Part shown: piece after piece, positions 18,559-41,813 of the stretch | Numbering within the stretch: position 1 is the first letter of the stretch | How the letters are laid out: every line of letters starts with the position of its first letter | NCBI GenBank assembly: GCA_046711205.1 | Contig: JBKEHX010000001.1 | Span: 1-45,414 of the forward strand | DNA: 45,414 nt | Reading direction: 5' to 3' | Source: Flavobacteriaceae bacterium | Lineage (GTDB): Bacteria; Bacteroidota; Bacteroidia; Flavobacteriales; Flavobacteriaceae | Position numbers and translations under genes: made by a program | Notes under the pieces: generated by a model | What the model was told of the DNA's origin: nothing | Databases searched by the model: none | What the model saw: the letters and a program-made list of their open reading frames with translations, nothing else

Positions 18559-18663
18559 ATGGGATATTTTATCAGAAACCTTTTTGTTTATGGTGCCATT
18601 GCCCTAGTGGTGTGGATGCTTTATGCTGCTATAAAGGGAATGAAAAATAAAAACCAACAATGA
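18559..18663 (+). CDS. candidate 34-aa hydrophobic peptide (MGYFIRNLFVYGAIALVVWMLYAAIKGMKNKNQQ)
   Basis: This is an internal ATG of track ORF 18436-18663. It gives a single TM-like helix with a basic tail. Confidence 0.3.
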   Translation: MGYFIRNLFVYGAIALVVWMLYAAIKGMKNKNQQ

Positions 18664-18733
18664 GAAGACCATTCTAAAAACCTTCAACATTCTCCTTTTC
18701 TGATCTTAAACCTTTTAAGACACTCACCTGAAA

Positions 18734-19882
18734 CTACTTTTGGTGGACTAAATAAGGATACTCATTTTCACGATGTTGAAAATCTAAGATTTGCTGTTTT
18801 ACCACAATTCCGTTGGCAATATTTATCGCATTATTAATAGTGACATTTTTTTTCCACTCAGAGGGGCCTTCCATAACCGCTTGTAAGTGTACAATTAATG
18901 CTGCAGAAATAGACCTCGAAGCACTTTCCCAAAAATAGCTAGGTGTGTGGTCAACAGCATAATAGTCGATTTGCTCAATTTTAATTAACGGTTCTTTAAA
19001 CGTTGTAGGTCTTGCAAAATAAAATCCCATGCCTTCATCACAACTCACATCAATTATTAAGGCCCCGGGTTTCATTTTTTCTTTTTCATCTTCAATCACA
19101 AAATTTATGGGATTGTCCGTTTCTTGATATGTTCCGTTAATAATGATGTCAGACTCACCAATTAAATCAATAAGTGGTCGCTGCTCCCCATTATGTTCTA
19201 TGACTTTTAGTCTGGGTTCGTTTGGACCACCCTTTTCTATTCGTGTATAATTTACATCCAGCACCTCTTCCCTAACTTCATGATCTGGCCTTTGAATGCA
19301 AATGGTAATGTCTCTAAAACCATGTGCTTTTAAGGCATAAATAGCGCCTCTACTTACCGCTCCAAAACTGAATATGATCACTTTACGTTGGTTACCATAA
19401 TGCCCATCTATCCCTTTAAGTTGTAGGGCATGAATTACTGCGCTATAGCCTGCCATCTCATTGTTTTTGTAAAAGGTGTGCCGACCCATCGCGCCGCTTG
19501 GATGCCAAACAAACATGTCCTCAAACGCTATTAATGTAAGTTTGCGTTCGATTGCTATTTGTGTTATTTCTTTTTGTTGGGCGCAATGAGGATACCCCCA
19601 TATTAACCCTCCTAATTTTAGAGTTCTTAGATCTGACGCTACCGGTTTTGCGATAATAACATTGCCAATGTCTGATAAAAGAACTTCTCTAGAAACCATG
19701 CCCCCAGTTTGTGATGAAATTTCTTCATCAGAAACATTAAACGGAATTCCATAGCCTTTTTCAAAAATAAGTTTTTTCCTAAGGCCTTCTGGGAGTCTTT
19801 TCAAGTGTTCTGGATGAATGGGAACTCTTCGTTCATCTTCTTTTTTGGAAGTTCCAATAACGCCCATTTGGGATAAAATCAT
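18734..19882 (-). CDS. alanine dehydrogenase/PNT-family enzyme, N5-(carboxyethyl)ornithine synthase-like
   Basis: It has an AlaDH-type N-terminal domain (RRVPIHPEHLKRL) and a central Rossmann motif (VIIFSFGAVSRGAIYAL). It is adjacent to the polyamine genes. Confidence 0.55.
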   Translation of the reverse strand: MILSQMGVIGTSKKEDERRVPIHPEHLKRLPEGLRKKLIFEKGYGIPFNVSDEEISSQTGGMVSREVLLSDIGNVIIAKPVASDLRTLKLGGLIWGYPHCAQQKEITQIAIERKLTLIAFEDMFVWHPSGAMGRHTFYKNNEMAGYSAVIHALQLKGIDGHYGNQRKVIIFSFGAVSRGAIYALKAHGFRDITICIQRPDHEVREEVLDVNYTRIEKGGPNEPRLKVIEHNGEQRPLIDLIGESDIIINGTYQETDNPINFVIEDEKEKMKPGALIIDVSCDEGMGFYFARPTTFKEPLIKIEQIDYYAVDHTPSYFWESASRSISAALIVHLQAVMEGPSEWKKNVTINNAINIANGIVVKQQILDFQHRENEYPYLVHQK

Positions 19883-20198
19883 TTTTTTAAATTAAAACGA
19901 ATTGGCTGTAAATACCAGTAACAAAACGTAAGATTAAACTCACAATTAGACGATTACTTTCTAGGAAGCAGGTCTTAAATCTGGCTACTAGAGTATTATT
20001 TTAATCAAAAGGACCTTGATGAGGCGGACAAAAGTTAATTTACATCAAGAAAGCTTGTGATTAAACTGCTGACAAATAATTATAGGCATAAGATACGCCT
20101 ATTCTAAGCATTCTTATCTAAGTTCATTATAGAAATTAATTATTTGAAAAGCTACTGGCGTTAAACCAATAAATAAAAATTTATCTAGAATAAAATTA

Positions 20199-21167
20199 TT
20201 AATCAAGTAAATATGCGAAAATTAGTGGAGCTACGATTGTTGCATCTGATTCGATAATAAATTTAGGAGTATCAACACCCAATTTCCCCCAAGTTATTTT
20301 TTCATTAGGAACGGCTCCAGAATAGGATCCAAAGCTTGTGGTGGAATCGGATATTTGACAAAAATAACTCCAAAAAGGAGTATCAGTTCGTTTTAAATCT
20401 TGATATAGCATTGGAACAACACAAATGGGAAAATCTCCTGCAATACCCCCTCCGATTTGAAAAAATCCTATTCCTTCTTTGCCCGCAGTTTGGGTATAAT
20501 AATTTGCCAACCACATCATGTATTCGATCCCAGACTTTACAGTGAAAGGTTTTAAGTTTCCTTTAACACAATACGAAGCAAAAATATTTCCCAAGGTTGA
20601 ATCCTCCCAGCCAGGAACAACTATCGGTAGATTTTTTTTCGCGGCTGCCAACATCCAAGAATTTTTCGGATCAATTTCGTAATATTCTTCTAAAACTCCT
20701 GAAAGTAACAATTGGTACATGTACTCGTGGGGGAAATAACTTTTACCCTCATTTTCAGCATTTTTCCAACAATTAAAAACATGTTTTTGTAACCTTCTAA
20801 AAGCTTCCTCTTCAGGAATACAGGTATCAGTCACCCGATTCAAGCCTTGTTCTAGCAAATCGAATTCTTGTTGAGGGGTCAGGTCTCTATAGTTAGGAAC
20901 ACGCTTATAGCTATTATGTGCTACCAAATTCATGAGATCTTCTTCCAAATTGGCACCTGTACATGAGATCATATGAACTTTATCTTGGCGAATCATTTCT
21001 GCAAGAGAAATCCCAATTTCTGCAGTACTCATAGCTCCAGCAAGTGATATTAACATTTTTTTACCAGATGCTAAATGGGCTTCATACCCTTGAGCGGCAT
21101 CAACCAAAGCTGCTGCATTAAAATGCAAAAAATGAGTTTCAATGAATTTTTTTATTTCTTTAGCCAT
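20199..21167 (-). CDS. deoxyhypusine synthase-like protein (probable homospermidine synthase)
   Basis: It shows the DHS family pattern, including the C-terminal GAVPNEKITWGKLGVD with the lysine of the conserved WGK motif. The start is trimmed to the ATG at 21167 (MAKEIKKFIE), 7 nt after the speB stop. Confidence 0.8.
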   Translation of the reverse strand: MAKEIKKFIETHFLHFNAAALVDAAQGYEAHLASGKKMLISLAGAMSTAEIGISLAEMIRQDKVHMISCTGANLEEDLMNLVAHNSYKRVPNYRDLTPQQEFDLLEQGLNRVTDTCIPEEEAFRRLQKHVFNCWKNAENEGKSYFPHEYMYQLLLSGVLEEYYEIDPKNSWMLAAAKKNLPIVVPGWEDSTLGNIFASYCVKGNLKPFTVKSGIEYMMWLANYYTQTAGKEGIGFFQIGGGIAGDFPICVVPMLYQDLKRTDTPFWSYFCQISDSTTSFGSYSGAVPNEKITWGKLGVDTPKFIIESDATIVAPLIFAYLLD

Positions 21168-21174
21168 TTTAAGT

Positions 21175-22029
21175 TTATAAATAAAATTTATAGGATAATA
21201 ATTTATAATATAGTTTTGCTGCCATAAAGTCGGGGGCATTAAAGACTTTCTTTGGAGCTAATTCTACAATATCAAAACCAACAACAGTGGTATTTATAAA
21301 TACTTTTTTTAGTAAATCTAGAGTTTCATTCCAAAAAAGTCCTCCCGGTTCTGGTGTCCCTGTCGAGGGCATAATAGATGGATCAAAAGCATCTAGATCA
21401 ATAGTGATATAGACATTCTCCCCAAGACAATTTACAACTTCTTCCTGCCAATTAGAATTGGTTCGAATTGCGTAGGAAGTAAAAAGTTTTTGTTTATTTA
21501 TAAAAGGTAATTCTTCACGATCCATACTACGGATCCCAACCTGAACCAAGTTGGTTGTTCTAGAAGCTTGGTATAAAGCACATGCATGATTGTTTGCCGA
21601 GCCTTTATATGATGGGCGCAAATCAGAATGCGCATCCAATTGCAAAACAGACAAATCCTTAAACTGTTTATTAAAAGCACGAATAGCTCCAATAGAAATT
21701 GAGTGTTCTCCTCCTAACAGGGTTACAAATTTATCTTTTTGAAAGTGTTTCGTAATTGAAGATTCAACTGCCCTAATCATGGATTCGGGACTGGTATCTT
21801 CTTTCACACTTGGGGCTAAATAAATCCCTTTTTTATATACTTCAGAATCTGTTTCAATATCATAAAGTTCCATGTTTTCTGCTGCCTTTAAAATAGCTTC
21901 TGGTCCTAAGTCAGCACCCTTGCCATAGGTGCTAGTTCCGTCATAGGGGACAGGAATAAGCACAACCTTGCTGGAATCATACTGTGCATATTCAGGAGAA
22001 ATGCCACCAAAGGTTCTTTGTTCATTCAT
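21175..22029 (-). CDS. speB: agmatinase (ureohydrolase family)
   Basis: It has the Mn-binding motifs GGEHSIS, LDAHSDL and ITIDLDAFDPS. It overlaps the speA stop by 8 nt. Confidence 0.85.
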   Translation of the reverse strand: MNEQRTFGGISPEYAQYDSSKVVLIPVPYDGTSTYGKGADLGPEAILKAAENMELYDIETDSEVYKKGIYLAPSVKEDTSPESMIRAVESSITKHFQKDKFVTLLGGEHSISIGAIRAFNKQFKDLSVLQLDAHSDLRPSYKGSANNHACALYQASRTTNLVQVGIRSMDREELPFINKQKLFTSYAIRTNSNWQEEVVNCLGENVYITIDLDAFDPSIMPSTGTPEPGGLFWNETLDLLKKVFINTTVVGFDIVELAPKKVFNAPDFMAAKLYYKLLSYKFYL

Positions 22030-23419
22030 AACCCAATAATTTCATAAAATTTTCTGCAGTTTGTTGTTCTGAAAATACTCTAGTTTCTAATTCCCCCGAT
22101 TCCTTTTTATCAATCAAAATGTATTTAGGCTGAGGAATCAGGCAATGTTGAAGTCCACCAAACCCGCCTAATGAATCTTGATATGCTCCCGTATTAAAAA
22201 AACCGATATAGAGGGGTTTATTTTGAGTAAAAATAGGAAGATAAATTGCATTAACATGTTGCTCATTATTGTAATAATCGTCACTATCACAAGTCAGCCC
22301 TCCTAAAAGGACTCTTTCATAGGGCTGATTCCAGTGATTTATGGGAAGCATAACAAAGCGTTTATTAATGGCCCAAGAGTCAGGTAAAGTGGTGATAAAA
22401 GAAGAATTAATCATATTCCATTTTTCTCGATCATTTTGTTGTTTTTGATAAAGCACCTCATAAAATATAGCCCCAGATTCCCCTACAGTAAAAGAACCAA
22501 ATTCTGTGAAAATATCAGGAACCGAAACTCCACCTTGATTACAAGTTGTTTGAATAAAATTGATGATTTCTGAGATCATATATTCATAATCAAAACAAAA
22601 CCCGAGGGAGTCTTTGGTGGGGAAACCTCCGCCTATATTCAAACTAGTAAGGGTGGGACAATTTTTTTTCAACTCAACATAAACATTTAAACATTTTTGA
22701 AGTTCATTCCAGTAATAAGAGTTGTCTTTAATACCCGTATTAATAAAGAAATGAAGCATGCTAAGACTAAGATTTGAATTCTCTTTAATCTCTTTTTTAT
22801 AAAAAGGGACGATGTTTTTATATCCAATTCCTAAGCGACTCGTGTAAAACTCAAATTTAGGTTCTTCTTCAGAGGCAATTCGAATTCCAATCTTAAAAGG
22901 ACTTTTAATTTTGTCATTTAATAAGTTTATTTCATCATAATTATCAATAATAGGAATACAATTGTAGTTGCCAGAATTTATTAATTCTGCAATGTTTTCG
23001 ATGTATTGATCCCGTTTAAATCCATTACAAAGTATATATGTACTTTCATTGATCTTTCCTTGATATCTTAATTTTTTTACGATTTCAATATCAAAGGCAG
23101 AAGAAGTTTCTATATGAATATCGTTTTTAAGGACTTCATCCAAAATATGACTAAAGTGGGCACTTTTTGTGCAATAACAATAATGATAATTTCCTTTATA
23201 ATTTTGATCTAAAATTACTTTTTGAAATAATGCTTTAGCCCTTTGAATATTTTCTGAAATCTTAGGGAGATAGCTTACCTTTAATGGAGTTCCATGTTGC
23301 TTAATTAAAGCTTCAATGTCAACTCCATGCCAAACAACAGAATGATTTGAGTTTAATTCAAATTCTTCTTGAGGAAAGTCAAAGGATTGTTCTATAAAAT
23401 CAATGTACTTATTTTTCAT
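22022..23419 (-). CDS. speA: PLP-dependent arginine decarboxylase (Orn/DAP/Arg decarboxylase fold type III)
   Basis: It has a PLP-lysine context (YCYCTKSAHF) and a GGGFP motif (LNIGGGFPT), and is coupled to agmatinase. The start is trimmed to the ATG at 23419 (MKNKYIDFIEQ). Confidence 0.8.
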   Translation of the reverse strand: MKNKYIDFIEQSFDFPQEEFELNSNHSVVWHGVDIEALIKQHGTPLKVSYLPKISENIQRAKALFQKVILDQNYKGNYHYCYCTKSAHFSHILDEVLKNDIHIETSSAFDIEIVKKLRYQGKINESTYILCNGFKRDQYIENIAELINSGNYNCIPIIDNYDEINLLNDKIKSPFKIGIRIASEEEPKFEFYTSRLGIGYKNIVPFYKKEIKENSNLSLSMLHFFINTGIKDNSYYWNELQKCLNVYVELKKNCPTLTSLNIGGGFPTKDSLGFCFDYEYMISEIINFIQTTCNQGGVSVPDIFTEFGSFTVGESGAIFYEVLYQKQQNDREKWNMINSSFITTLPDSWAINKRFVMLPINHWNQPYERVLLGGLTCDSDDYYNNEQHVNAIYLPIFTQNKPLYIGFFNTGAYQDSLGGFGGLQHCLIPQPKYILIDKKESGELETRVFSEQQTAENFMKLLGYE

Positions 23420-23426
23420 AGAGCGA

Positions 23427-23681
23427 TTATTCTTCAAAATCAATTTCAGATAGTTCTTCATCAATTTTTTCTGAAATATCCACGTGATTTTTATTATATT
23501 CAGCAATCGTATTTAGGGGTATCAGAAGAATCAATCCATCTGTTTCATACAATACCCCTTTAACAAGTTCCCCTAAATAAGGAAATGTGGTTGTTTCTAA
23601 TTCTCCTTCTTTAAAAGCGAGATAAATTGAATTTTGTAAAGCAGAATCACATTTTTTTAAGCTCCTAATAACCCGTTGCAT
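23427..23681 (-). CDS. hypothetical 84-aa protein with an acidic C-terminal tail, first gene of the polyamine operon
   Basis: ORF track. The stop lies 7 nt before the speA ATG. The tail is EKIDEELSEIDFEE. No family recognised. Confidence 0.45.
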   Translation of the reverse strand: MQRVIRSLKKCDSALQNSIYLAFKEGELETTTFPYLGELVKGVLYETDGLILLIPLNTIAEYNKNHVDISEKIDEELSEIDFEE

Positions 23682-23795: not shown

Positions 23796-24248
23796 ATGGA
23801 CAATGTAGACAGAAAAATCCTTGAAATCCTCCAAGAAAATGCAATGATTACGGCTAAAGAACTAGCCCAAAAACTATCATTAACAACCACACCCATTTAT
23901 GAAAGAATCAAAAAGCTTCAGAAATCAGGAATCATCAAACAATATGTTGCCTTACTTGATGCAAATTTGTTAGGAAAAAGCATCCTTGTTTTCATGAATA
24001 TCACTATAAAGGACCACCACTCTGACAAAAGAAATGAGTTTGTAAAACAAATTAAAAAACTAGATTCTGTGATTGAATTTTATCACACTTCTGGAAGCTT
24101 TGATTTTTTAGCAAAAGTCCGTTTTTCAGATATAAAAACATTTCGTGACTTCTTGGTGAATGATGTTGCTTCGATCTATAACATTAGTGATATTGAAAGT
24201 CAAATCGTATTGGAAGAGATTAAATATTCTACTAAAATAATTTTATAG
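23796..24248 (+). CDS. Lrp/AsnC family transcriptional regulator
   Basis: It has the HTH region MDNVDRKILEILQENAMITAKELAQKLSLTTTPIYERIKKLQKSGIIK followed by a RAM/AsnC_trans_reg domain. Confidence 0.9.
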   Translation: MDNVDRKILEILQENAMITAKELAQKLSLTTTPIYERIKKLQKSGIIKQYVALLDANLLGKSILVFMNITIKDHHSDKRNEFVKQIKKLDSVIEFYHTSGSFDFLAKVRFSDIKTFRDFLVNDVASIYNISDIESQIVLEEIKYSTKIIL

Positions 24249-25381: not shown

Positions 25382-25849
25382 ATGAAAAAATTACTGCCTC
25401 TATTATTTTTAACCCTCATTAGTTTTAAGGTATTCGATCAAACGGAAATTGAAGCTAAGGAACTTTCAAAAAAAGAGCTTAGAGTGCTAAAAAAACAAAA
25501 AGCTTTTGAAAAACAAAAAGCCCGCTTTGAAAAACGAGGCCTGAATGCATGGGGAATTAATGAAAATGCCCCCAATGTAGTTATGGCGATTCGCGAACAT
25601 CTAGGTTCTGCCCGTATCGACACCCAACGTGGTTTAGTTATTATAAGAAAATCAGAATCGTTAACTAATTCTCAAGCTTATCCTCTTTGGATTATAGATG
25701 GGCAGCATTATCAATCCCCACCGACTAGTTTAGCGCTTCAAAATATTCGTGAAGTAAATGTTTATGAATCTTTAGCAGAAACCAATAAATGGGGACAACA
25801 AGGACGCGCAGGTGTTGTTGAAATTATTACAATAAATTTTATAGATTGA
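25382..25849 (+). CDS. secreted protein with a TonB-dependent-receptor plug-like C-terminal segment (stand-alone, 155 aa)
   Basis: It has a signal peptide, a Lys/Glu-rich helix, then PLWIIDGQHY...IREVNVYESLAETNKWGQQGRAGVVEIIT. That resembles the PL.viDG...I.si.vlk...a.alYG.raanGVI.ItT block of TBDR N-termini. Confidence 0.5.
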   Translation: MKKLLPLLFLTLISFKVFDQTEIEAKELSKKELRVLKKQKAFEKQKARFEKRGLNAWGINENAPNVVMAIREHLGSARIDTQRGLVIIRKSESLTNSQAYPLWIIDGQHYQSPPTSLALQNIREVNVYESLAETNKWGQQGRAGVVEIITINFID

Positions 25850-26781
25850 TCCTTAAGGTTCAAATAGCTTTAATTCAGCCTTTTTTAATATGGGGGTTAT
25901 TCTTTATGACCCCAATACTGAGTGCACAAAAGCCCAGTAATTTTACCTATCTAATAATCCTAGGAACCCTTCAAGATGGGAATTCACCGCACTTGGGTTG
26001 TGAAAAGAAATGTTGTAAATTTCTTAATGAATTTCAAAAAGAAGAACGTAAAGTCACATCACTGGCAGTAATTCAACCAAAAAACAATTTTAATATACTT
26101 TTTGAAGCTACTCCTAACATAATTTCTCAATGGACGGCATTGCCATGTAAACCAAAAGGAATTTTCTTAACTCATGCCCATATGGGGCATTATTCTGGAC
26201 TTTTGCAATTGGGTAGAGAGGCTTTAGGCGCTAAAAATATCCCCGTACATGTAATGCCTAAAATGGCAACTTTTTTGCAAGAAAACGCGCCCTGGAGTCA
26301 ATTGATATCAATTGGAAATATTGAACTAAAGCCAATGTTGGCAAATCAAGCAGTCCGTTTTAGTGATGATATAACAGTAACACCAATTCTTGTTCCCCAT
26401 CGTGATGAATTTTCCGAAACCGTTGGGTATCGAATTCAAGGGCCAAATAAAACAGTGCTTTTTATTCCAGACATAGATAAATGGTCCAAGTGGAATCAAA
26501 ATTTAATAGCCGTCTTAGAAACTGTGGACTATGCCTTTTTAGATGCCACTTTTTTTGATCAAGAAGAAATAAAATACCGTGCATTAGAAGAAATTCCGCA
26601 TCCACTTGTAGAAGAAACTATTGCTTATTTAAAGCCCGCATCTCGGCAGCTAAAAAGTAAAATATACTTTATTCATATGAATCACACCAATCCTTTACTT
26701 GATTTTCAAAGTAAAGCTACCAAATGGGTAATTGATCAAGGGTTCCATATTGCGCGAAAAGGGCAGCAGTTTCAATTGTAA
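25846..26781 (+). CDS. metallo-beta-lactamase-fold hydrolase, PqqB-like
   Basis: It has LTHAHMGHYSGL (an HxHxxH-type metal motif), later His/Asp ligands (PHRDEF, FIHMNH) and a signal-like N-terminus. The TTG start overlaps the previous stop by 4 nt; an alternative ATG is at 25906. Confidence 0.65.
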   Translation: MILKVQIALIQPFLIWGLFFMTPILSAQKPSNFTYLIILGTLQDGNSPHLGCEKKCCKFLNEFQKEERKVTSLAVIQPKNNFNILFEATPNIISQWTALPCKPKGIFLTHAHMGHYSGLLQLGREALGAKNIPVHVMPKMATFLQENAPWSQLISIGNIELKPMLANQAVRFSDDITVTPILVPHRDEFSETVGYRIQGPNKTVLFIPDIDKWSKWNQNLIAVLETVDYAFLDATFFDQEEIKYRALEEIPHPLVEETIAYLKPASRQLKSKIYFIHMNHTNPLLDFQSKATKWVIDQGFHIARKGQQFQL

Positions 26782-26869: not shown

Positions 26870-29800
26870 ATGAAAAAAGTTTTAAAAACCATTTTTGTCT
26901 TGAGAAAGCCTTTTCATTGTCTAGGCTTTTATGGCATGTTTATTTTTTTACTTTCCCATTGTTCCTTGGAAATTCCGAAAAAAATAAATCAAGAAATGGC
27001 TGGGCTTCCAGAAGAAGTGGATTTTAACTACCACATAAAACCCATCCTTTCAGACCGTTGTTTTAAATGCCATGGTCCAGATGAAAACACAAGAAAAGCA
27101 GGTCTAAGATTAGATGTTGAAACACTAGCATTTGCAAAATTAGCAAGTGGCAAAAGTGCCTTTTCAAAAGGAAGTATTTATAGAAGTGAAGCCGCACATC
27201 GAATTATAAGTATGGATCCTGAAATTCAAATGCCTCCTCCTTTTTCAAACCTTCAACTTACAGAAAGAGAAAAAGCCATGCTTCTTAAATGGATTGAGCA
27301 AGGCGCAAAATGGAAAGAACATTGGTCGTTTACGCCCTCTAAAAAAATCAATGCCTCACTACTTTCAATAAAAAATAATAAGCAGATTATTGATCAATTT
27401 ATTTCAGATAAATTAACCGAAAATGGGTTAAGCTTTGAAGTCGAAGCTACAAAGGAAACCTTAATTCGTAGGTTGCGTTTTGATTTAACAGGAATTCCAC
27501 CATCAATTTTAGAAATTGATGTTTTTTTAAAAGACACACTGCACGGAAATTATGAACGCCTAGTAGACAGATTAATGGCCTCTAAGAGTTTTGCAGAAAG
27601 ACTTTCTTTAGATTGGCTAGATCTTTCACGGTATGCAGATTCTCATGGCCTGCATGCAGATGGTTCTCGAACAATGTGGCCATGGCGTGATTGGGTAATT
27701 GATGCTTTTGAGAAAAACATGCCTTATGATCAGTTTGTAACCTGGCAATTAGCTGGGGATTTACTGCCAAATGCAACCAAAGAACAAAAACTAGCGACAG
27801 CTTTTAACCGAAATTCTCCTATGACTGCTGAAGGGGGAATTATTGATGAAGAATGGCGCTTAAACTATGTTTTTGATCGGACGGAAACATTTAGCACTGC
27901 CTTTTTAGGATTGACAGTAGCCTGTGCAAAATGCCATGACCATAAGTTTGATCCAATTTCTCAAAAGGACTACTACCAACTAAGTGCCTTTTTTAATAAT
28001 ATAAGAGAATTAGGAATGACTGGCGATGATGGGGATTTTGGCCCGCTACTTTATTTACCTTCAGAAAATCAACAAGCACAGCTTAAAAAGCTGAAAACAC
28101 TCATAAGAGAAACACAAACTAAAATAGAACTTTCCAAAAAAGAACTGGCAGAAGTCTATCAATACATAGAAAAACTTCCTGTAGAAAAAGAACTTGAAAA
28201 GCACCTAATTGGAACCTATCCTTTTGATAAAATTACCCCAATAAGAACACGTAAAAACTCAACCTTTGTTATTTCCAATAATACTGTTGTCACGCCAGAA
28301 TATTACATAAGCGATAACAATCGAAATGTAAAATCTAGCCAAGCTCCCATAGAAGTTAAAGGAATTAAAGGAAATGCCGTTCAATTTAAAAGTGACTACG
28401 ACAAGATTTCCATAGACAAAGAAATTCCGAGTTTTGAATGGACCGACCCTTTTTCTGTAGCTATTTGGATTAATACAGAGCAAAAAAAAGAAAACACACG
28501 ACAATATATTCTTGGGACTACAGGGGGTAAAAACAACTGGTGGCGTGGATGGGATTTTTATTTAGATGATCAAAATCATGTTAACTTCCGACTGGTCAAT
28601 ATGTCTCCTGGCAACATGATTCATGTTCGCTCTACAGAAACTGTTTTGATTAATCAGTGGACGCATCTTAGTTTTGCGTATAATGGCACTGGGAAAGCTA
28701 ACGGAGTTCAATTGTTTAAAAACGGTTCCCCCTTTGCAACCTCTACTAAAATTAACAACCTTTCAAAATCAATTAAACCAGTTTCCACAAGCGGAATGCA
28801 TGTTGAGCAACGTGCAGTTTTAATTGGAAAAACATATGAAGGATCCACCGGAGATAATGGCCTTTTTAAGGGGAAAATGGATGATCTCAAAATTTATGAT
28901 AAGTCCCTTTCAGCATTAGAAGCCTCTTTACTCTTCAACCAATATGCTGAGGAATCTCCTGCGCCAGAAAAAGGATTAATGAAAGAACATTGGATTCAAA
29001 ACCATCAAAAATATACCTCGCTCGATAAAGAGTTGCGAAAAAATTTAGGTGCCTGGAGAGAAACTATTGATCCCGTAATAGAAGTAATGGTTATGGAAGA
29101 GCTGAAAGAAGCTCGCACAACCTACCTCTACAATCGAGGAAACTATGCCGAACCTGCCTTTGAAGTAGAGACTATAACCCCAGGGGCACTTCCTTCTATG
29201 GATAAAGAACTCCCTAAAAACAGGCTTGGATTGGCACAATGGTTATTCAAAAATGAAAACCCCCTGACAGCACGTGTTGCTGTAAATAGGTATTGGCAAA
29301 TGATTTTTGGAAATGGCCTGGTGGCTACTCCCACTGATTTTGGAGTTCAAGGCTCTTTACCCTCGCATCCTGAATTATTGGACTGGTTGGCTGAAGATTT
29401 TAAAGAAAATAATTGGGATGTAAGAGCTCTGATTAAAAAAATGGTGCAGTCTAAAACGTATAAACAACGTGTACTATTTTCCAATAAAAAGAATACCCTT
29501 GATCCAAACAATATTCTGCTGGCTAGAGGAAATAGCAAAAGATTGTCTGCTGAAATGATTCGGAATAATGCACTGTCTGTTAGTGGCTTACTGTCTGAAA
29601 AATTAGGAGGCCCTAGTGTAAAACCTTACCAACCAAAAGGCTTATGGAAAGAAAAAAACACGTTTTCCTTGCGTCTTTTAGAGTACAAAGAATCCGAAGG
29701 TGAAGACTTGTATAGAAGAGGGATTTATACCTTTATAAAACGCGGGTCACCTCCACCTTCCTTAATTACTTTTGATGCTACCTCTCGTGAAATTTGTACT

Positions 29801-30169
29801 ATTAAAAGAGAAAATACTTCTTCGCCCTTACAGTCTTTAGTCCTTTTAAATGATGTTCAGTTTTTTGAAGCTTCCCGTGTTTTTGCAGAACGTATTTTTG
29901 CGGAATCTAAAGACACTTTAGAGGCTCAGATTACGTATGGCTTTAGGCTCGCTACCTCTCGATTTCCAGAACCACAAGAAATTGAATTAATGAAAGAACT
30001 CTATCAAAATCAACTAGCATTTTACAAAAAAAATAAACGACAAGCTTATAGGGTCGTCAATGTTGGGAATTCCAAATTTAAACAAAAGACAAAGGTGGAT
30101 AAGGTGGCTGCCATGACCATTGTTGCCAACACACTACTAAACATGAATGAGTCCTATTATAAATATTAA
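26870..30169 (+). CDS. PSCyt1 (CxxCH heme-c) / DUF1549 (PSCyt2) / LamG-like / DUF1553 (PSD1) multidomain protein
   Basis: HIKPILSDRCFKCHGPDENTRKAGLRLD (Planctomycete cytochrome C motif). WSFTPSKK...IDQFISDKL...LIRRLRFDLTGIPPS (DUF1549-like). DDLKIYDKSLSALEASLLF (LamG_3-like ending). FGVQGSLPSHPELLDWLA (DUF1553-like). Confidence 0.8.
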   Translation: MKKVLKTIFVLRKPFHCLGFYGMFIFLLSHCSLEIPKKINQEMAGLPEEVDFNYHIKPILSDRCFKCHGPDENTRKAGLRLDVETLAFAKLASGKSAFSKGSIYRSEAAHRIISMDPEIQMPPPFSNLQLTEREKAMLLKWIEQGAKWKEHWSFTPSKKINASLLSIKNNKQIIDQFISDKLTENGLSFEVEATKETLIRRLRFDLTGIPPSILEIDVFLKDTLHGNYERLVDRLMASKSFAERLSLDWLDLSRYADSHGLHADGSRTMWPWRDWVIDAFEKNMPYDQFVTWQLAGDLLPNATKEQKLATAFNRNSPMTAEGGIIDEEWRLNYVFDRTETFSTAFLGLTVACAKCHDHKFDPISQKDYYQLSAFFNNIRELGMTGDDGDFGPLLYLPSENQQAQLKKLKTLIRETQTKIELSKKELAEVYQYIEKLPVEKELEKHLIGTYPFDKITPIRTRKNSTFVISNNTVVTPEYYISDNNRNVKSSQAPIEVKGIKGNAVQFKSDYDKISIDKEIPSFEWTDPFSVAIWINTEQKKENTRQYILGTTGGKNNWWRGWDFYLDDQNHVNFRLVNMSPGNMIHVRSTETVLINQWTHLSFAYNGTGKANGVQLFKNGSPFATSTKINNLSKSIKPVSTSGMHVEQRAVLIGKTYEGSTGDNGLFKGKMDDLKIYDKSLSALEASLLFNQYAEESPAPEKGLMKEHWIQNHQKYTSLDKELRKNLGAWRETIDPVIEVMVMEELKEARTTYLYNRGNYAEPAFEVETITPGALPSMDKELPKNRLGLAQWLFKNENPLTARVAVNRYWQMIFGNGLVATPTDFGVQGSLPSHPELLDWLAEDFKENNWDVRALIKKMVQSKTYKQRVLFSNKKNTLDPNNILLARGNSKRLSAEMIRNNALSVSGLLSEKLGGPSVKPYQPKGLWKEKNTFSLRLLEYKESEGEDLYRRGIYTFIKRGSPPPSLITFDATSREICTIKRENTSSPLQSLVLLNDVQFFEASRVFAERIFAESKDTLEAQITYGFRLATSRFPEPQEIELMKELYQNQLAFYKKNKRQAYRVVNVGNSKFKQKTKVDKVAAMTIVANTLLNMNESYYKY

Positions 30170-31630
30170 ATGATGAATTGCAATCACGACCACGATCACT
30201 CAGACTATTCTAGGCGTGACTTCCTAACCAAAACTACTTTAGGTTTAGGAGGGCTTAGTTTAGCGAGTATGATAAATTCTGAAAATCTATATGCCTTCAA
30301 CAAAATTAGTAATTCAACCGCATTAAATTCGAAATTACCTCATTTTGTGCCTAAAGTAAAACGGGTTATTTATTTATTTCAAAGTGGAGCTCCCTCACAA
30401 TTAGACTTGTTTGATTACAAGCCCATGCTAAATAAAATGCAGGGACAAGAACTTCCTCCAAGTGTTTTTGGTGAACAACGGCTTACAGGAATGACCGCTG
30501 GGCAAAATTCATTTCCCTTAGCGGGAAGTCTTTTTAATTTTAACCAACACGGAAATAGTGGTGCTTGGATGAGTGATCTAATGCCTGAGGTTAGTAAGAT
30601 TTCTGATGAGTTGTGTTTTATCAAATCTATGCACACAGATGCAATAAACCATGATCCTGCCGTAAGCCTTATTCAAACTGGTTCACAGCTTCCGGGAAGA
30701 CCCTCCATAGGTTCCTGGTTAAGTTATGGTTTGGGGAGTGACAATAAAAATTTACCTGGTTTTGTGGTATTAATAACAAAAGATAAGTATGGTCAGCCAC
30801 TCTACTCTCGCTCATGGGGGAATGGCTTTTTACCTTCACAACACCAAGGAGTACAGTTCCGTTCAGGAAAAAATCCTGTGCTATATTTAGATAATCCTCC
30901 CGGTGTTACTAAACAGCTTAGGGAAGAACAGTTAGACTATTTAGCCAAAATGCAGCAGAATAAATATAATGATATTGGAGATCCTGAAATTTTATCTCGA
31001 ATCAGTCAATATGAAATGGCGTTTAGAATGCAGACTTCTGTTCCTGATGTGATGGACTTGTCTGAAGAACCTGATTATATCTATGACATGTATGGAGAAG
31101 ACAGTAGAAAGCCAGGAACCTTTGCTGCTAATTGCCTTTTAGCTAGGCGCCTTGTGGAAAAAGATGTTAAGTTTATACAGCTCTACCATCAGGGTTGGGA
31201 TCATCACGGGGATCTACCAAAAAATATTAAAACCCAATGTAAAGAAACTGATCAACCTACAGCAGCCTTAATCAAGGACCTCAAACAAAGAGGCCTCTTG
31301 GAAGATACACTTGTGATTTGGGGCGGAGAATTCGGAAGAACAAACTACTCGCAGGGGCAATTAACAGACACGAATTATGCGCGTGATCATCACCCCGGTT
31401 GTTTCACCATCTTTATGGCCGGAGCAGGAATTAAAAAAGGAATTACCTATGGTGCCACGGATGAATTTGGGTATAATATTATTGAAAACCCTGTGCATAT
31501 TCATGACTTTCAAGCAACACTAATGCACCTTATGGGAATTGATCACGAAAAATTCACCTTTAAGTTTCAAGGAAGAAGGTTCAGACTTACCGATGTTCAT
31601 GGAAGTGTTGTACATGATATATTAGCCTAA
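30170..31630 (+). CDS. DUF1501 family protein (alkaline-phosphatase/sulfatase-superfamily fold), Tat-exported
   Basis: It has a twin-arginine signal (YSRRDFLTKTTLGLGGLSLA), then YLFQSGAPSQLDLFDYKP and WGGEFGRT blocks typical of DUF1501. The start codon immediately follows the previous stop. Confidence 0.8.
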   Translation: MMNCNHDHDHSDYSRRDFLTKTTLGLGGLSLASMINSENLYAFNKISNSTALNSKLPHFVPKVKRVIYLFQSGAPSQLDLFDYKPMLNKMQGQELPPSVFGEQRLTGMTAGQNSFPLAGSLFNFNQHGNSGAWMSDLMPEVSKISDELCFIKSMHTDAINHDPAVSLIQTGSQLPGRPSIGSWLSYGLGSDNKNLPGFVVLITKDKYGQPLYSRSWGNGFLPSQHQGVQFRSGKNPVLYLDNPPGVTKQLREEQLDYLAKMQQNKYNDIGDPEILSRISQYEMAFRMQTSVPDVMDLSEEPDYIYDMYGEDSRKPGTFAANCLLARRLVEKDVKFIQLYHQGWDHHGDLPKNIKTQCKETDQPTAALIKDLKQRGLLEDTLVIWGGEFGRTNYSQGQLTDTNYARDHHPGCFTIFMAGAGIKKGITYGATDEFGYNIIENPVHIHDFQATLMHLMGIDHEKFTFKFQGRRFRLTDVHGSVVHDILA

Positions 31631-31645
31631 ACCTATGTTATAATT

Positions 31646-32695
31646 ATGGAAAAAAACAGAAGAGATTTTATTAAAAAAACAGGAATTGCTGCTGGAATTT
31701 CAGCACTGCCCTTTGAAAATATTTTTGCGGTTACAAACCCTGCAAAAGAAGAAAATACGATTATTGGTCATGGAGATTATAAATATAAGGTTGATAAATC
31801 ATGGGGAATTCAAGATCCTTCTCAATTTCCTGTTAATGACTGCCATGAAATGGTAATGGATAAAAAGAAAAGACTTTTTATGACCACTACACATCCCAAA
31901 AATAATATTCTGGTATATGATCAATCAGGTAAAATTCTTGATGCCTGGGGAACCGATTTCCCTGGAGCACACGGATTAACTCTTGTTGAAGAAGGGGGAA
32001 AAGAATTTTTATTTATTACAGACCCTGAAACTCATAAAGTTTTCAAAACGACCCTTAAAGGAGAAAAGTTACTTGAATTTTCTACACCAAAAGAAGTTGC
32101 TGCTTATGAGAAAGATGCCCAATTTAAACCAACTGAAACAGCCATAGCTAATAATGGAGATATATACATTGCCGATGGCTATGGAATGGATTATATCATG
32201 CAATATGACGCCAAAGGAAACTATATAAGACATTTTGGAGGTAAAGGAACTGAAGCACACCAATTTGACTGTTGCCATGGTATTACAATTGATACCCGTG
32301 AAGGTAAAGCGCCTACTCTGTTAATTACATCACGTAGCGCAAATGTATTTAAAAGGTTTTCCTTAGACGGTAACTACCTAGAAACCATTTCATTACCAGG
32401 ATGTTATATTTGCAGACCTGTTCTAAAAAACGGGATGCTTTATTTTGCGGTAATTGTAACTAAAGATTGGGGCAGTTATGACGGAATGCTGGCAGTACTC
32501 AACAATAAAAATGAGGTGGTTTCTCTTCCAGGAGGAAGTATTCCCTCATACAATAACAACTCTTTTCAAGTGCCACAATATGATCAAAAAACATTTTTTA
32601 ACCCGCATGATGTTTGTATAGATGACGATGAAAATATTTATGTCCCACAATGGAATTCGGGAAAAACATATCCACTTAAATTAACAAGGGTTTAG
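31646..32695 (+). CDS. Tat-exported six-bladed beta-propeller protein (NHL/peptidyl-hydroxyglycine-lyase-like)
   Basis: It has a twin-arginine signal (MEKNRRDFIKKTGIAAGISA). Repeated short blade motifs (HGLTL..., GDIYIADGYG, HGITID, HDVCIDDDENIYV) are consistent with NHL-type propellers. Confidence 0.55.
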   Translation: MEKNRRDFIKKTGIAAGISALPFENIFAVTNPAKEENTIIGHGDYKYKVDKSWGIQDPSQFPVNDCHEMVMDKKKRLFMTTTHPKNNILVYDQSGKILDAWGTDFPGAHGLTLVEEGGKEFLFITDPETHKVFKTTLKGEKLLEFSTPKEVAAYEKDAQFKPTETAIANNGDIYIADGYGMDYIMQYDAKGNYIRHFGGKGTEAHQFDCCHGITIDTREGKAPTLLITSRSANVFKRFSLDGNYLETISLPGCYICRPVLKNGMLYFAVIVTKDWGSYDGMLAVLNNKNEVVSLPGGSIPSYNNNSFQVPQYDQKTFFNPHDVCIDDDENIYVPQWNSGKTYPLKLTRV

Positions 32696-32696
32696 T

Positions 32697-34058
32697 ATGA
32701 TAAGCCTTGACATTACTACTTTTTTTGGACGTTTTCATCCGTTATTAGTTCATTTACCTATTGGGTTTTTGCTGCTCGCGCTTCTCTATGATCTAAAATG
32801 GTTCAAAAAAAAAGAATCATACTATAATTTAAATTCTATCACATGGTTTCTAGCTTTTATCACCTCTGCTATTAGTGCTTTTATGGGGTGGCTTTTGGCT
32901 CAAAATGGGCACTACATTGAGACCGATTTAAAACCACATCAGATTTCAGGGATTCTATTGGTTTTATTTAGCGGAGTTGGTTGGTTTCTTAGGGTCCGAA
33001 ATCTTATCATTCCTCCCATACTCAAAAAATTAAATAATATTATTGTAATTGGTTTATTAATATTAGTAGGTCATTTGGGAGGGAGCTTAACACATGGACC
33101 TTCCTATTTATATGAACATCTTCCTGAGCAAGGTATACTAAAATTTGAAGCCCAAGAGACCTATATTGATTTAAAAAAAATCTCCTTAGATTCTATTACC
33201 GTTTTCAATGACATCATTCAGCCCTTATTGACCTCAAAATGCATTGCTTGTCACAACAATGATATTTCTAGTGGGGGACTAAATATGACGAGTATTGAAG
33301 GGCTTACGAAAGGAGGTAAAAGTGGTGCTGGAATTATTGGCTCTAATATTAATAAGAGTTTAATTTTTGATCGAATTATACGCGCCCAGGACGATGCCAA
33401 ATTTATGCCTCCCATGGGAACACCCTTTACCTATCAAGAAATTCAATTAATGGAATGGTGGATTGAAGAAGGCGCCTCCTACTCCAAGGCCCTTTCCGAA
33501 ATAAGCCCAAAGAGTTTCATTCAAAAACTTCTTTTATCTCGCTATGGAATGGATATACGAGAAAAACCCTGGGTTGAAAAAGTATCGCTTACCCCTTTGG
33601 GTGAAGCTGATTTTGAAGCGTTAGAAAACGCCAATTTTGGTTGGAGAAGTCTTTCAAAAGAGAATGCACTTTTGGACCTGAAGTATGAAGCAAAAAATCT
33701 TACAAAAGAAGCCCTTGATGTTCTAGGTATATATGCACCTTATATTACATGGCTCAATTTGAGTAACTGTACTTTTTCTAATACAGAATTAGAGGTTTTG
33801 AGTAAAATGGAAAATCTAACACGCTTAAATCTACAAAAATCTAACGTTAAAACAAATGACCTGAAGGGGTTGGTCTCCTTAACACACCTAGAGGTTTTAA
33901 ACATTCACAGCACAGGGGTTAATAAAGAAATTCTTGAAATTCTAAAAGAGATTGCAAGCTTAAAAAGAGTTTTCCTTTGGAACACTAAGATTACTTTAAA
34001 AGAGGTTGAAAAAATTAAAACTAAAACACCTTCTTCAGAACTTATCTTTGAGCTCTAA
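32697..34058 (+). CDS. polytopic membrane protein with a periplasmic CxxCH (PSCyt1-like) domain and C-terminal leucine-rich repeats
   Basis: It has about 4 N-terminal TM helices beginning FHPLLVHLPIGFLLLAL (DUF2231-like) and the heme-c motif IIQPLLTSKCIACHNND. LRR-like repeats follow (LNLSNCTFSNTELEVLSKMENLTRLNLQKSNV...LEVLNIHSTGV). Confidence 0.7.
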   Translation: MISLDITTFFGRFHPLLVHLPIGFLLLALLYDLKWFKKKESYYNLNSITWFLAFITSAISAFMGWLLAQNGHYIETDLKPHQISGILLVLFSGVGWFLRVRNLIIPPILKKLNNIIVIGLLILVGHLGGSLTHGPSYLYEHLPEQGILKFEAQETYIDLKKISLDSITVFNDIIQPLLTSKCIACHNNDISSGGLNMTSIEGLTKGGKSGAGIIGSNINKSLIFDRIIRAQDDAKFMPPMGTPFTYQEIQLMEWWIEEGASYSKALSEISPKSFIQKLLLSRYGMDIREKPWVEKVSLTPLGEADFEALENANFGWRSLSKENALLDLKYEAKNLTKEALDVLGIYAPYITWLNLSNCTFSNTELEVLSKMENLTRLNLQKSNVKTNDLKGLVSLTHLEVLNIHSTGVNKEILEILKEIASLKRVFLWNTKITLKEVEKIKTKTPSSELIFEL

Positions 34059-37966: not shown

Positions 37967-39382
37967 CTAGTTGTCAATTTGCCCTACTGGGCGTACCTCT
38001 TTCCCTTTAATTCCTGTGAGGCGATCTCCTAAAACAAGGCGGATAGAATCTGCTATTTTAGAAATTTTCTCCACCATTTCTGGATGTTGAGATGCTACAT
38101 CATGTTGTTCCCTTAGATCATTAGAAAGATCATAAAGCAGGGGAGTGGTGATTTCATTCATTTGATAAGGTACTGGAAAACCATCATTGGTTCCCAACGT
38201 TCCATTTAGAGTACGGTAGGTATGTGGAACATAAAGTTTCCAATCTTTATGTCGAATGGCATGTAATTCATTGGTACGGTAATAGAAGAAAAAATTATCA
38301 TGTGGAGAAGTGTTTGTTCTTCCTGTTAAAAGGGGAACTAAAGAAGCACCGTCTATTTTTCGTTCAGGCATTTTGGTGGCTGCAAATTCAGCTAAGGTGG
38401 GTAACCAATCAATTCCCATTGCAGGGGCTTCTATAAGTGTATTGGGGGCAATTTTTATTGGGTAACGAATGATTCCTGGCACCCGATGGCCCCCTTCCCA
38501 ATTGGTTCCTTTTCCTTCTCTAAAAATTCCAGGAGAACCAGCGTGCCCTCCATAAGACAGCCAAGGGCCATTGTCTGAAGTAAATATAACAATAGTATTT
38601 TCTACTATGCCTTCCTCCTCTAGAGTGACTAGGATTCTTCCCACAGAAGCATCAATTTCATTAATCACATCTCCATAAAGTCCTCGGTCTTGGGTTCCTT
38701 CAAAAGCAGCGGCTGCAAAAAGGGGTACATGAGGCTGTGGATGCGATAGGTACACAAAAAACGGTTGTTCTTTGTGTCGCTGAATAAAACTAATGGCACG
38801 ATCTGTTAATGCTTTAGTCAAAAAGGTTTGGTCTTCTAAAACACGAAGTGGGGTTTCATTTTCATATAATTCAATGTCTGGAAAATCAAACACAGAACCC
38901 TGTTGTGGATGTTTTGGCCACATATCATTTGAATATAAAATCCCGAAAAACTCATCAAAACCATGCTTGCGAGGTAAAAATCCAGGGGCGTCTCCTAAGT
39001 GCCATTTTCCAAAGATACTGGTGGCATAACCTTTCTCTTTTAGGAGTTCAGCCAAGGTAGTCTCTTTGGGATTAAGGCCCACTTTTGATCCGGGACTGTA
39101 GGCATTATGAACACCAATACGGTCTGAATAACATCCCGTAAGAATAGAAGCCCTTGAAGCAGAACATACTGGTTGTGTGGCGTAGTAGGAAGTAAACCTT
39201 GCGCCATCTGAGGCGAGTTTATCTAAGTGTGGGGTTTCGATATCGGTAGCCCCATAAACACCTAAATCTCCATATCCTTGATCATCTGTTAGAATAAAAA
39301 TAATATTTGGAGAGGTTGTTTCTTCAGGAACAACACATCCACCAAATAAAAATATACTGCAAAAAAGAAAAAAAAATTTCAT
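37967..39382 (-). CDS. Cys-type arylsulfatase (formylglycine-dependent sulfatase family)
   Basis: It has NIIFILTDDQGYGDLG, the sulfatase signature PVCSASRASILTG and GKWHLG, plus a signal peptide. Confidence 0.9.
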   Translation of the reverse strand: MKFFFLFCSIFLFGGCVVPEETTSPNIIFILTDDQGYGDLGVYGATDIETPHLDKLASDGARFTSYYATQPVCSASRASILTGCYSDRIGVHNAYSPGSKVGLNPKETTLAELLKEKGYATSIFGKWHLGDAPGFLPRKHGFDEFFGILYSNDMWPKHPQQGSVFDFPDIELYENETPLRVLEDQTFLTKALTDRAISFIQRHKEQPFFVYLSHPQPHVPLFAAAAFEGTQDRGLYGDVINEIDASVGRILVTLEEEGIVENTIVIFTSDNGPWLSYGGHAGSPGIFREGKGTNWEGGHRVPGIIRYPIKIAPNTLIEAPAMGIDWLPTLAEFAATKMPERKIDGASLVPLLTGRTNTSPHDNFFFYYRTNELHAIRHKDWKLYVPHTYRTLNGTLGTNDGFPVPYQMNEITTPLLYDLSNDLREQHDVASQHPEMVEKISKIADSIRLVLGDRLTGIKGKEVRPVGQIDN

Positions 39383-41387: not shown

Positions 41388-41780
41388 TTATAATGTAGTA
41401 ACTAGAACTACACCACCAGAGCCCATAATTCCATAAGCTGCTATATCAGAGGGATTTTTTAAAACTTCTATTCGTTTTATTTCTTGAGGATTAAGTGAAG
41501 AAGCTCCTCTAGAAAAACTCCCAACTTGGGTCCCATCTATAATAAACAATACCTCTTTCGGATTGTTTATACTTGAAATTCCTCTTAGAAATATTTGAGC
41601 ATTCTGACCGTTCCCACGAATGATAAGTCCGGAATATCTTCTTAATTGATCGAGTAAACTAATATTTGCATTTGAGGGAGTTTCAACTTTTACTTTTTCT
41701 TTTATTGTGGCTTTTGAGGCTGAACATCCAGAGGATGAAAATACCAATAGAAGAGTTAATAATGTGATTGTTTTTTTCAT
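41388..41780 (-). CDS. lipoprotein consisting essentially of a TonB-dependent-receptor plug-like segment (stand-alone)
   Basis: It has a lipobox (MKKTITLLTLLLVFSSSGC), then LIIRGNGQNAQIFLRGISSINNPKEVLFIIDGTQV...IKRIEVLKNPSDIAAYGIMGSGGVVLVTT. Alternative ATGs are at 41789 and 41804. Confidence 0.55.
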   Translation of the reverse strand: MKKTITLLTLLLVFSSSGCSASKATIKEKVKVETPSNANISLLDQLRRYSGLIIRGNGQNAQIFLRGISSINNPKEVLFIIDGTQVGSFSRGASSLNPQEIKRIEVLKNPSDIAAYGIMGSGGVVLVTTL

Positions 41781-41813
41781 ATCAAACATAGTTGTGTTTT
41801 TCATTTATTAAAT

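Follow-up and report, generated by a model that had tools for sequence, protein, structure and literature searches.

The genes and proteins of the module

The analysis concerns four adjacent genes, ORF1 to ORF4 (ORF, open reading frame), located in a 45,414-nt stretch of DNA from a Flavobacteriaceae bacterium (assembly GCA_046711205.1, contig JBKEHX010000001.1, positions 1 to 45,414 of the forward strand). This whole stretch is referred to below as the window, and coordinates are those of the window unless a related locus is named. The four genes had been singled out in a preceding interpretation of the DNA (the sequence-only reading) as a compact envelope module. Their coordinates, all on the + strand, were reproduced exactly by a program-made ORF list covering the whole window:

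26870..30169, + strand: ORF1, 1099 amino acids (aa), predicted di-heme-c lipoprotein composed of PSCyt1, PSCyt2/DUF1549, a LamG-type insert and PSD1/DUF1553
30170..31630, + strand: ORF2, 486 aa, DUF1501 protein predicted to be exported by the twin-arginine (Tat) route, with a probable scaffold of the sulfatase/alkaline-phosphatase type and His161 at the formylglycine position
31646..32695, + strand: ORF3, 349 aa, predicted Tat-exported six-bladed NHL propeller resembling peptidyl-α-hydroxyglycine α-amidating lyase (PAL); accessory member
32697..34058, + strand: ORF4, 453 aa, predicted membrane cytochrome composed of a four-helix transmembrane (TM) DUF2231 domain, a PSCyt1 heme-c domain and leucine-rich repeats (LRRs)

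The gaps between ORF1 and ORF2, ORF2 and ORF3, and ORF3 and ORF4 are 0, 15 and 1 nt, respectively, and the ORF list thus bore out the operon-like packing of same-strand genes described in the sequence-only reading. The stop codon of ORF4 overlaps a convergent PIG-L gene. A scan for sigma-70 promoters and intrinsic terminators between 25200 and 35000 gave counts not exceeding the shuffled expectation; such a scan is unsuited to Bacteroidota promoters and is uninformative on the operon. Pfam recovered all the domains that had been called previously, the LRRs of ORF4 being weak in Pfam but clear in a profile comparison with the PDB and in an AlphaFold2 (AF2) model. The NCBIfam search returned no match at cut-off for the module proteins. 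The twin-arginine signals claimed for ORF2 and ORF3 were also found in the translations (SRRDFL and NRRDFI, respectively), and both motifs are conserved in the homologues.

The domains of ORF1 are located as follows:

27059..27241, + strand: PSCyt1, aa 64-124 (Pfam 1.4e-12), with CFKCH at residue 64 and the conserved M121-P122
27389..28006, + strand: PSCyt2/DUF1549, aa 174-379 (Pfam 2.4e-82), with CAKCHDHKFDP at residue 352
28400..28921, + strand: Laminin_G_3/concanavalin-like insert, aa 511-684 (Pfam 1.1e-17), presumed ligand-binding module
29219..30001, + strand: PSD1/DUF1553, aa 784-1044 (Pfam 7.1e-95), with many motifs at least 95% conserved

Among 50 ORF1 homologues encoded beside ORF4 relatives, both CxxCH motifs and the LamG-type insert were present in all 50, and the lipobox Cys31 in 48. 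The position of this conserved Cys at the end of the signal sequence suggests that ORF1 is a lipoprotein. At least 95% of the homologues keep the C64..CH motif and the 'MP.p' motif, and M121 is the probable Met axial ligand of the PSCyt1 heme. Since a second CxxCH motif of ORF1 lies in PSCyt2 (CAKCH at residue 352), the module holds three heme-c motifs and not two, as had been counted in the sequence-only reading. The sequence and profile search of the PDB with ORF1 returned noise only. In one related locus on a metagenomic contig (L002, locus positions 4179-7431) the ORF1 orthologue consists of two overlapping ORFs, of 202 aa (PSCyt1) and 895 aa (the rest). The break falls exactly between PSCyt1 and PSCyt2; a genuine split of the gene, a frameshift and a sequencing error are all conceivable.

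ORF2 matched DUF1501 in Pfam at 4.1e-160, and invariant His residues are abundant in it. Its Pfam Sulfatase score was 18.4 bits, below the gathering cut-off of 25, and no matches were obtained in the sequence and profile search of the PDB. The relationship to sulfatases was examined with hhalign, using a profile composed of the window's own sulfatase and its relatives, and a probability of 95.8% (E 6.7e-9) was obtained. The alignment was confident over ORF2 residues 355-472 and approximately 138-172, and the N-terminal strand was not confidently aligned. ORF2 therefore resembles the formylglycine (type I) sulfatases (PF00884) in the nucleophile helix-loop segment and in the C-terminal half of the core, and differs from them in the residues on which their activity depends. 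The sulfatase segment C73-S-A-S-R77 aligned with H161-D-P-A-V165 of ORF2 (posterior approximately 0.8, and approximately 0.7-0.9 in the segment around the nucleophile), so that His161 stands in place of the formylglycine Cys and Val165 in place of the Arg. ORF2 residues N160 through A164 (N-H-D-P-A) are invariant. The Asp-Asn metal ligands of the sulfatase 'SDNG' motif corresponded to Glu387-Phe388 within G-E387-F388-G. As the C/S-x-P/A-x-R motif is absent, ORF2 falls outside the formylglycine sulfatases; judged from these alignments, it appears to be built on the sulfatase scaffold and cannot be a formylglycine sulfatase.

The Pfam matches of ORF3, to NHL/six-bladed propellers and DUF5128, were weak. 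A profile of the ORF3 family compared with the PDB matched NHL propellers, including 3fvz at 2.7e-10, which corresponds to rat PAL; the rat reference used here was verified to match residues 7-329 of 3fvz chain A and PAM 498-820 exactly. In a BLASTP alignment, H109, H211 and H321 of ORF3 corresponded to the Zn ligands H585, H690 and H786 of rat PAL, and all three are invariant in 35 homologues. Within a shared DGY motif, Y179 corresponded to the catalytic Y654 and is at least 90% conserved in the same set, in which H321-D322, the counterpart of H786-D787 with the Ca-binding Asp787, is also invariant. The equivalent of rat Arg706 is R230 by strand logic or R218, which lies beside the BLAST-aligned position; both are invariant. 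At the level of sequence, ORF3 thus has, apart from the ambiguous Arg, the defining features of PAL (EC 4.3.2.5), with the Zn His triad, the Tyr and the Ca-binding Asp set in a six-bladed NHL propeller. The bacterial enzyme ExiPAL has the same residue constellation, and bacterial PALs are active, their natural function being unclear (PMC10900485). ORF3 differs from rat PAL in that the identity is only ~21% and, by overall sequence score, TRIM-type NHL domains are at least as close to ORF3 as PAL is; ORF3 is furthermore Tat-exported and linked to a heme/DUF1501 module instead of a copper monooxygenase. The description of ORF3 as a Tat propeller was therefore right as to fold and signal but too generic, as the protein is specifically PAL-like, with the Zn/Tyr site intact.

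ORF4 comprises three parts:

32733..33098, + strand: DUF2231 TM domain, aa 13-134 (Pfam 1.6e-10); H14, H19, H81 and H126 invariant, H133 at least 90% conserved
33240..33416, + strand: PSCyt1, aa 182-240 (Pfam 1.4e-10), with CIACH at residue 182 and the invariant M237-P238-P239
33636..34046, + strand: LRR domain, approximately aa 314-450, predicted to be periplasmic; presumed protein-docking module

The LRR_8 match in Pfam (1.1e-4) was below the gathering score, and the profile of the ORF4 family recognized LRRs in the PDB at 2.4e-17. In the AF2 model of ORF4 (pLDDT 84) four TM helices are followed by a helical heme-c domain and then by an LRR solenoid with alternating strand/helix repeats, where pLDDT was mostly 83-95; Foldseek of the full-length model against the PDB returned LRR proteins only. 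PDB matches of the DUF2231 domain to a designed repeat protein and to EmrE (E ~0.02) were rejected as compositional. When the TM domain was searched against 1.84 billion cluster representatives, 2464 clusters passed E <= 1e-3, of which 736 also passed E <= 1e-10. In 103 full-length representatives (23-38% identity) PSCyt1 was found in 103, DUF2231 in 98 and LRRs in at least 68, and H14, H19, H81, H126, C182, C185, H186, M237 and P238 were invariant across the set. Both PSCyt1 domains of the module accordingly carry the features of the family (C64FKCH with M121 in ORF1, C182IACH with M237 in ORF4), heme attachment itself being predicted. M237 is the probable Met ligand of the ORF4 heme c; cytochromes c that serve as electron carriers typically have such His/Met ligation.

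The topology of ORF4 was deduced by the positive-inside rule from 20 homologues. Loops 33-47 and 99-112 were assigned to the cytoplasm (mean K+R 3.7 and 3.3), and the N terminus, loop 2 and the whole remainder beyond TM4 to the periplasm, so that both termini are out. The cytoplasmic loops are approximately 14 residues long and there is no cytoplasmic domain. This N-out/C-out arrangement fits periplasmic heme attachment, and all four invariant His residues of the TM domain lie at the periplasmic ends of helices.

Conservation in Bacteroidota and relation to described modules

At least 1030 clusters (90% identity) of ORF4 relatives were found at E <= 1e-5. One genome per GTDB species was then scanned with the ORF4 alignment, and an ORF4 relative was found in at least 562 species genomes. 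The best 80 loci, which were examined further, come from Flavobacteriaceae, Cyclobacteriaceae, Saprospiraceae, Chitinophagaceae and Cytophagales, with ORF4 identities of 31-59%; the module or an ORF4 relative was present in the genera Ulvibacterium, Eudoraea, Flagellimonas, Arenibacter, Echinicola and Maribacter. Adjacency was counted in the 45 loci, one per species, that had at least 6.5 kb on both sides of the ORF4 relative, by searching their six-frame ORFs with the window proteins.

Relatives of both ORF1 and ORF2 adjoined the ORF4 relative in 40 of these 45 species, and an ORF3 relative did so in 23. With the ORF1/ORF2 pair present, ORF3 was situated between ORF2 and ORF4 in 16 loci and after ORF4 in five; in the remaining two it adjoined ORF4 without the pair, once on each side. 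Contigs with ORF4 relatives at 59%, 50% and 41% identity have all four genes in an unchanged order, and in the last of these (L004) the flanking genes are entirely different from those in the window. Gene order varies in other loci, ORF3 preceding or following ORF4 and ORF4 standing first in some Maribacter loci, and the flanking genes of the module are unrelated between species. Since the pair is kept in 40 of 45 species across families while the flanks are unrelated and the order is rearranged, the adjacency is not due to chance, which the sequence-only reading had named as the outcome that would speak against a module. Its suggestion that the propeller and TM-cytochrome-LRR genes accompany the DUF1553/DUF1501 pair was likewise supported by these counts.

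From the same counts it follows that the conserved core of the module is ORF1-ORF2-ORF4 and that ORF3 is a frequent but detachable accessory. The proposed four-gene unit thus held for its core but not for ORF3 as a fixed member. Among five sampled contexts of ORF3, two were in or beside the module (L089, with the same four genes, and L092) and three contained ORF3 alone. In these three loci (L088, 8001-9059; L090, 6001-7059; L091, 6001-7062; locus coordinates) the ORF3 relative occupied a conserved FGE-sulfatase/Mur-ligase site (FGE, formylglycine-generating enzyme), and in L088 an RND efflux pump was found in place of the absent ORF1, ORF2 and ORF4. In a further locus, L087, ORF3-ORF4 were kept with an RND pump upstream. 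This pattern suggests stepwise loss or relocation of the module, and the occurrence of ORF3 where the other three genes are absent indicates that it may work independently.

Two other arrangements support the view that ORF4 generally acts as a partner to cytochrome-c enzymes of the periplasm. In L092 the ORF3 relative is convergent to a trio of genes for PSCyt1/PSCyt2/PSD1, DUF1501 and PSCyt1 proteins, in which a 480-aa PSCyt1 protein is paired with a PSD1/DUF1501 pair that has no LamG domain. A rearranged second locus in Maribacter algicola (L031, locus positions 8915-20439) comprises a metallo-β-lactamase (MBL)-fold gene, an ORF4 paralogue, a 974-aa DUF7133 propeller-HEAT-cytochrome c protein, a xylose-isomerase-like TIM barrel, ORF1 and ORF2.

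The median identity to the window protein across loci was 72% for ORF2, the most conserved member of the module, 60% for ORF3 and 47% for ORF1; for ORF4 the identity was 39-59% over the homologues listed. ORF2 and ORF3 are thus much more conserved than ORF1 and ORF4, a pattern of enzyme-like constraint. Other recurrent neighbours in the 80 loci were GFO/IDH/MocA (21/80) and sulfatase genes (19/80) only, which probably represent the background of these genomes.

Part of this organization has been described. DUF1501 encoded beside PSCyt1/PSCyt2/(Laminin_G_3)/PSD1 proteins was reported as a conserved, probably membrane-targeted electron-transport module with function unknown in PVC bacteria, and a four-gene form from Verrucomicrobia and Planctomycetes comprised DUF1501, a PPC-like protein, PSCyt1-Big_2-PSCyt2-PSD1 and PSCyt1-WD40, the occurrence in Bacteroidota being given as 'a few species' (Kamneva et al. 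2012, PMC3542564). The observation of the module was repeated for Verrucomicrobia (He et al. 2017, PMC5615132). The locus studied here corresponds to it in that a DUF1501 protein with a Tat signal (ORF2) adjoins a PSCyt1/PSCyt2/PSD1 protein with Laminin_G_3 (ORF1), an adjacency kept in the great majority of species as described above, and resembles the four-gene form in having a further PSCyt1 protein to which a repeat domain is joined. It differs in that the second cytochrome is of the DUF2231(TM)-PSCyt1-LRR type, the fourth gene encodes an NHL propeller of the PAL-like kind and the hosts belong to the Bacteroidota, with the wide distribution of ORF4 relatives given above. No Pfam match to WD40, PPC or Big_2 was found in the module of the window. 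As the DUF1501 and PSCyt/PSD1 pair was published in 2012, this part is not undescribed, contrary to the sequence-only reading; the set of partners looks new, and the membrane cytochrome (ORF4) and the PAL-like protein (ORF3) appear to be undescribed as members of such a module.

Possible function of the module

It is possible, although we would stop short of calling it probable, that the genes of the locus are co-transcribed and that their products form a periplasmic complex for redox catalysis, tethered to the membrane; this is the reading favoured here. In such a complex ORF2, presumed to be the catalytic subunit, would use a His-rich metal site of a non-sulfatase kind, as judged from sequence. 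ORF1 would bind a glycan- or peptide-like substrate through the LamG insert and relay electrons through its two hemes. ORF4 would dock the complex by means of its LRRs and connect the hemes of the periplasm to the respiratory chain, electrons passing by way of the ORF4 heme c and of a quinone site or His-ligated cofactor in DUF2231. By analogy with multi-subunit periplasmic dehydrogenases, the favoured direction would be oxidation of the substrate with electrons passing out to the membrane. Where the PAL-like ORF3 is present, it might then split a hydroxylated oxidation product of the carbinolamide or hemiaminal type. Redox chemistry was preferred to hydrolysis because of the membrane cytochrome ORF4, the PAL-like identity of ORF3 and the loss of the nucleophile in DUF1501. 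The conservation of the three CxxCH motifs and of the Met-Pro motifs in both PSCyt1 domains also supports this preference.

Periplasmic dehydrogenases of the gluconate 2-dehydrogenase and fructose dehydrogenase type consist of a Tat-exported catalytic subunit and a multi-heme cytochrome c subunit that delivers electrons to the respiratory chain. The module shares with them a putative Tat-exported catalytic subunit, c-type heme carriers and membrane attachment, but its presumed catalytic subunit is a DUF1501 protein and not a flavoprotein, pyrroloquinoline quinone or molybdenum enzyme, and its hemes are carried by two proteins, a lipoprotein and a polytopic membrane protein. The two groups are unrelated in sequence, so the comparison is one of functional analogy and not of membership.

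Several points weigh against a redox complex of this kind. The alkaline-phosphatase/sulfatase superfamily is classically hydrolytic, and we know of no precedent for a redox role of DUF1501. No functional characterisation of DUF1501, DUF1549, DUF1553, PSCyt or DUF2231 was found in the open literature searched. The AF2 model of ORF2, obtained with a 30-sequence alignment of 75-86% identical proteins, had a mean pLDDT of 34.9 and was unusable. Foldseek gave no PDB match for the TM or heme domains of ORF4, no solved relative of the DUF2231 domain was found in the PDB search, and the His-ligated cofactor in this domain is a guess. Approximately 10% of the ORF4 relatives with full flanks are without the ORF1/ORF2 pair, and about half of the loci have no ORF3, which persists without ORF1, ORF2 and ORF4 in the three loci mentioned above.

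One competing explanation is hydrolytic scavenging. The LamG domain of ORF1 would hold an organosulfate, organophosphate or glycan, on which ORF2 would act as a divergent sulfatase, phosphatase or phosphodiesterase; the hemes would be structural or regulatory (e.g. in O2 or redox gating) and ORF4 would be a tether only. The homology of ORF2 to the sulfatase scaffold seen in the hhalign comparison and the weak Pfam Sulfatase match speak for it, as do the LamG insert, the sulfatase, FGE-sulfatase, GH3 and GH109 genes in the wider neighbourhood and the sulfatase genes in 19 of the 80 related loci. That last frequency is, however, close to the chance level in sulfatase-rich marine Bacteroidota (an estimate, not a computed value), and the replacement of the formylglycine Cys by an invariant His, of the Arg by Val and of the Asp-Asn ligands by Glu-Phe is difficult to reconcile with such an activity and weakens the organosulfate or phosphate hydrolysis proposed in the sequence-only reading. 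Strict conservation of three c-type heme motifs over hundreds of species would moreover be costly unless they transferred electrons, and hydrolysis needs no dedicated membrane cytochrome with an invariant His cluster. We therefore regard the hydrolytic explanation as unlikely. The direction of electron flow could also be the reverse of that favoured here. Electrons would then pass from the quinol pool or respiratory chain into ORF4 and on, by way of the three c hemes, to ORF2/ORF1 for a step that is reductive or that activates O2 as in a monooxygenase, and the PAL-like lyase would cleave the hydroxylated product, in a functional analogue of PHM/PAL/cytochrome b561. Animal PAL acts after redox hydroxylation, following an electron-consuming hydroxylase that is fed across the membrane by a His-ligated cytochrome, and this precedent, together with the intact PAL-like active site of ORF3, the His-rich ORF2 and the nature of ORF4 as a membrane protein with invariant His residues and a heme c, lends the inward route some support. 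Against it stand the location of all the conserved ORF4 His residues at the periplasmic face, unlike a two-heme transmembrane wire, and the absence of ORF3 from half of the loci. No oxygenase-type domain was detected in the domain searches (Pfam, NCBIfam), and His/Met c-type hemes are usually of high potential and poor reductants. Taken together, these points make inward electron flow rather improbable.

A sensory function had been included among the possibilities in the sequence-only reading, with ORF4 as an envelope receptor whose heme and LRR domains would perceive a ligand or redox state and signal across the membrane. LRR and heme domains do occur in sensors elsewhere and ORF4 is embedded in the membrane, but its topology, with both termini periplasmic and no cytoplasmic output domain beyond the short loops, led us to reject it as a sensor. 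No kinase, sigma/anti-sigma or response-regulator gene was conserved beside ORF4 relatives in the 80 loci, and the fixed neighbours of ORF4 are enzymes, so that this function seems very unlikely. It is hardly credible that the four genes form no functional unit and are adjacent merely by chance or through recent shared ancestry. The ability of ORF3 to stand alone and the few ORF4 relatives that have no pair could be cited in favour of this explanation, which for ORF1, ORF2 and ORF4 is already refuted by the retention of the pair in several families over the whole 31-59% range of ORF4 identity, with unrelated flanks and rearranged gene order. The tight spacing of the genes in the window is also at odds with it.

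A more specific mechanism, which we consider doubtful, would make the module a hitherto unrecognised class of periplasmic oxidoreductase. The DUF1501 protein would have exchanged the formylglycine/Ca site for a His-rich redox metal centre, wired through three c-type hemes to a new membrane cytochrome, in which DUF2231 would hold a His-ligated cofactor at the periplasmic face. It would carry out oxidative C-H hydroxylation next to N or O in a glycan or peptide bound by the LamG domain, and the PAL-like zinc lyase would cleave the product, the whole constituting a heme-driven bacterial analogue of PHM/PAL/cytochrome b561. If such an amidating-type analogue were true, it would provide the first natural role for bacterial PALs as well as for one of the most amplified DUF pairs of PVC bacteria and Bacteroidota. 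In Planctomycetes, Verrucomicrobia and marine Bacteroidota, few families without an assigned function have expanded as much as the DUF1501 and PSCyt/PSD1 proteins, whose role has been open since at least 2012 in the literature searched. In the present locus, a compact form of such a pair from Bacteroidota, two additions are informative: a PAL-like lyase, and a membrane cytochrome by which the pair is tied to the inner membrane. The chemistry of PAL is well established for animals, where a hydroxylated C-N bond is cleaved once a redox step has taken place. The membrane cytochrome, the PAL-like lyase and the loss of the DUF1501 nucleophile make the old question of function testable, and culturable hosts exist. 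The locus could also explain the natural role of bacterial PAL enzymes, which are already used in biotechnology.

Genes surrounding the module

Upstream of ORF1, at a distance of 88 nt, two genes are located on the same strand:

25382..26781, + strand: a 155-aa ORF (no Pfam match) and an MBL-fold gene (Lactamase_B_2, 1.8e-21)

The 155-aa ORF overlaps the start of the MBL-fold gene by 4 nt. This pair was found in L001-L003, L006, L007, L009, L011, L013 and L015, in which ORF4 is approximately 49-59% identical to that of the window, and was absent from more distant loci; the MBL gene upstream of the ORF4 paralogue in the M. algicola locus L031 is a different one. The pair is probably not part of the core and possibly represents an extended operon in this lineage. 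Both this pair and the downstream block of PIG-L, GFO, gluconokinase and 6PGD genes were considered as core parts of the module and rejected, as they follow it only in close relatives.

The canonical sulfatase of the window is encoded at 37967-39382 on the - strand, its formylglycine motif being C-S-A-S-R, with Ala in place of Pro. An FGE-sulfatase gene is present at 43930-44976, also on the - strand, and FGE-sulfatase genes flank the module in the distant relatives L004 and L089 as well. Between these two genes, at 41388-41804 on the - strand, a 138-aa ORF was found that contains only the Plug domain of TonB-dependent receptors (Pfam 9.4e-13). A similar Plug-only gene of 130 aa occupies the equivalent place in L006 and L007, so the ORF may be a conserved small gene and not a fresh pseudogene.

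In the part of the window preceding the module, a cluster of polyamine type on the - strand (18734-23506) encodes a pyridoxal phosphate-dependent Orn/Arg decarboxylase, an arginase-family (agmatinase-like) protein, a deoxyhypusine-synthase-like protein and an AlaDH/PNT-like dehydrogenase, and a divergent AsnC/Lrp regulator lies beside it at 23796-24248. Positions 1-5000 have a GC content of 27-30%, compared with 35-39% over most of the window, and may be a foreign or atypical segment. The sole Rfam match in the window was a tRNA gene at 45113-45186 on the + strand.

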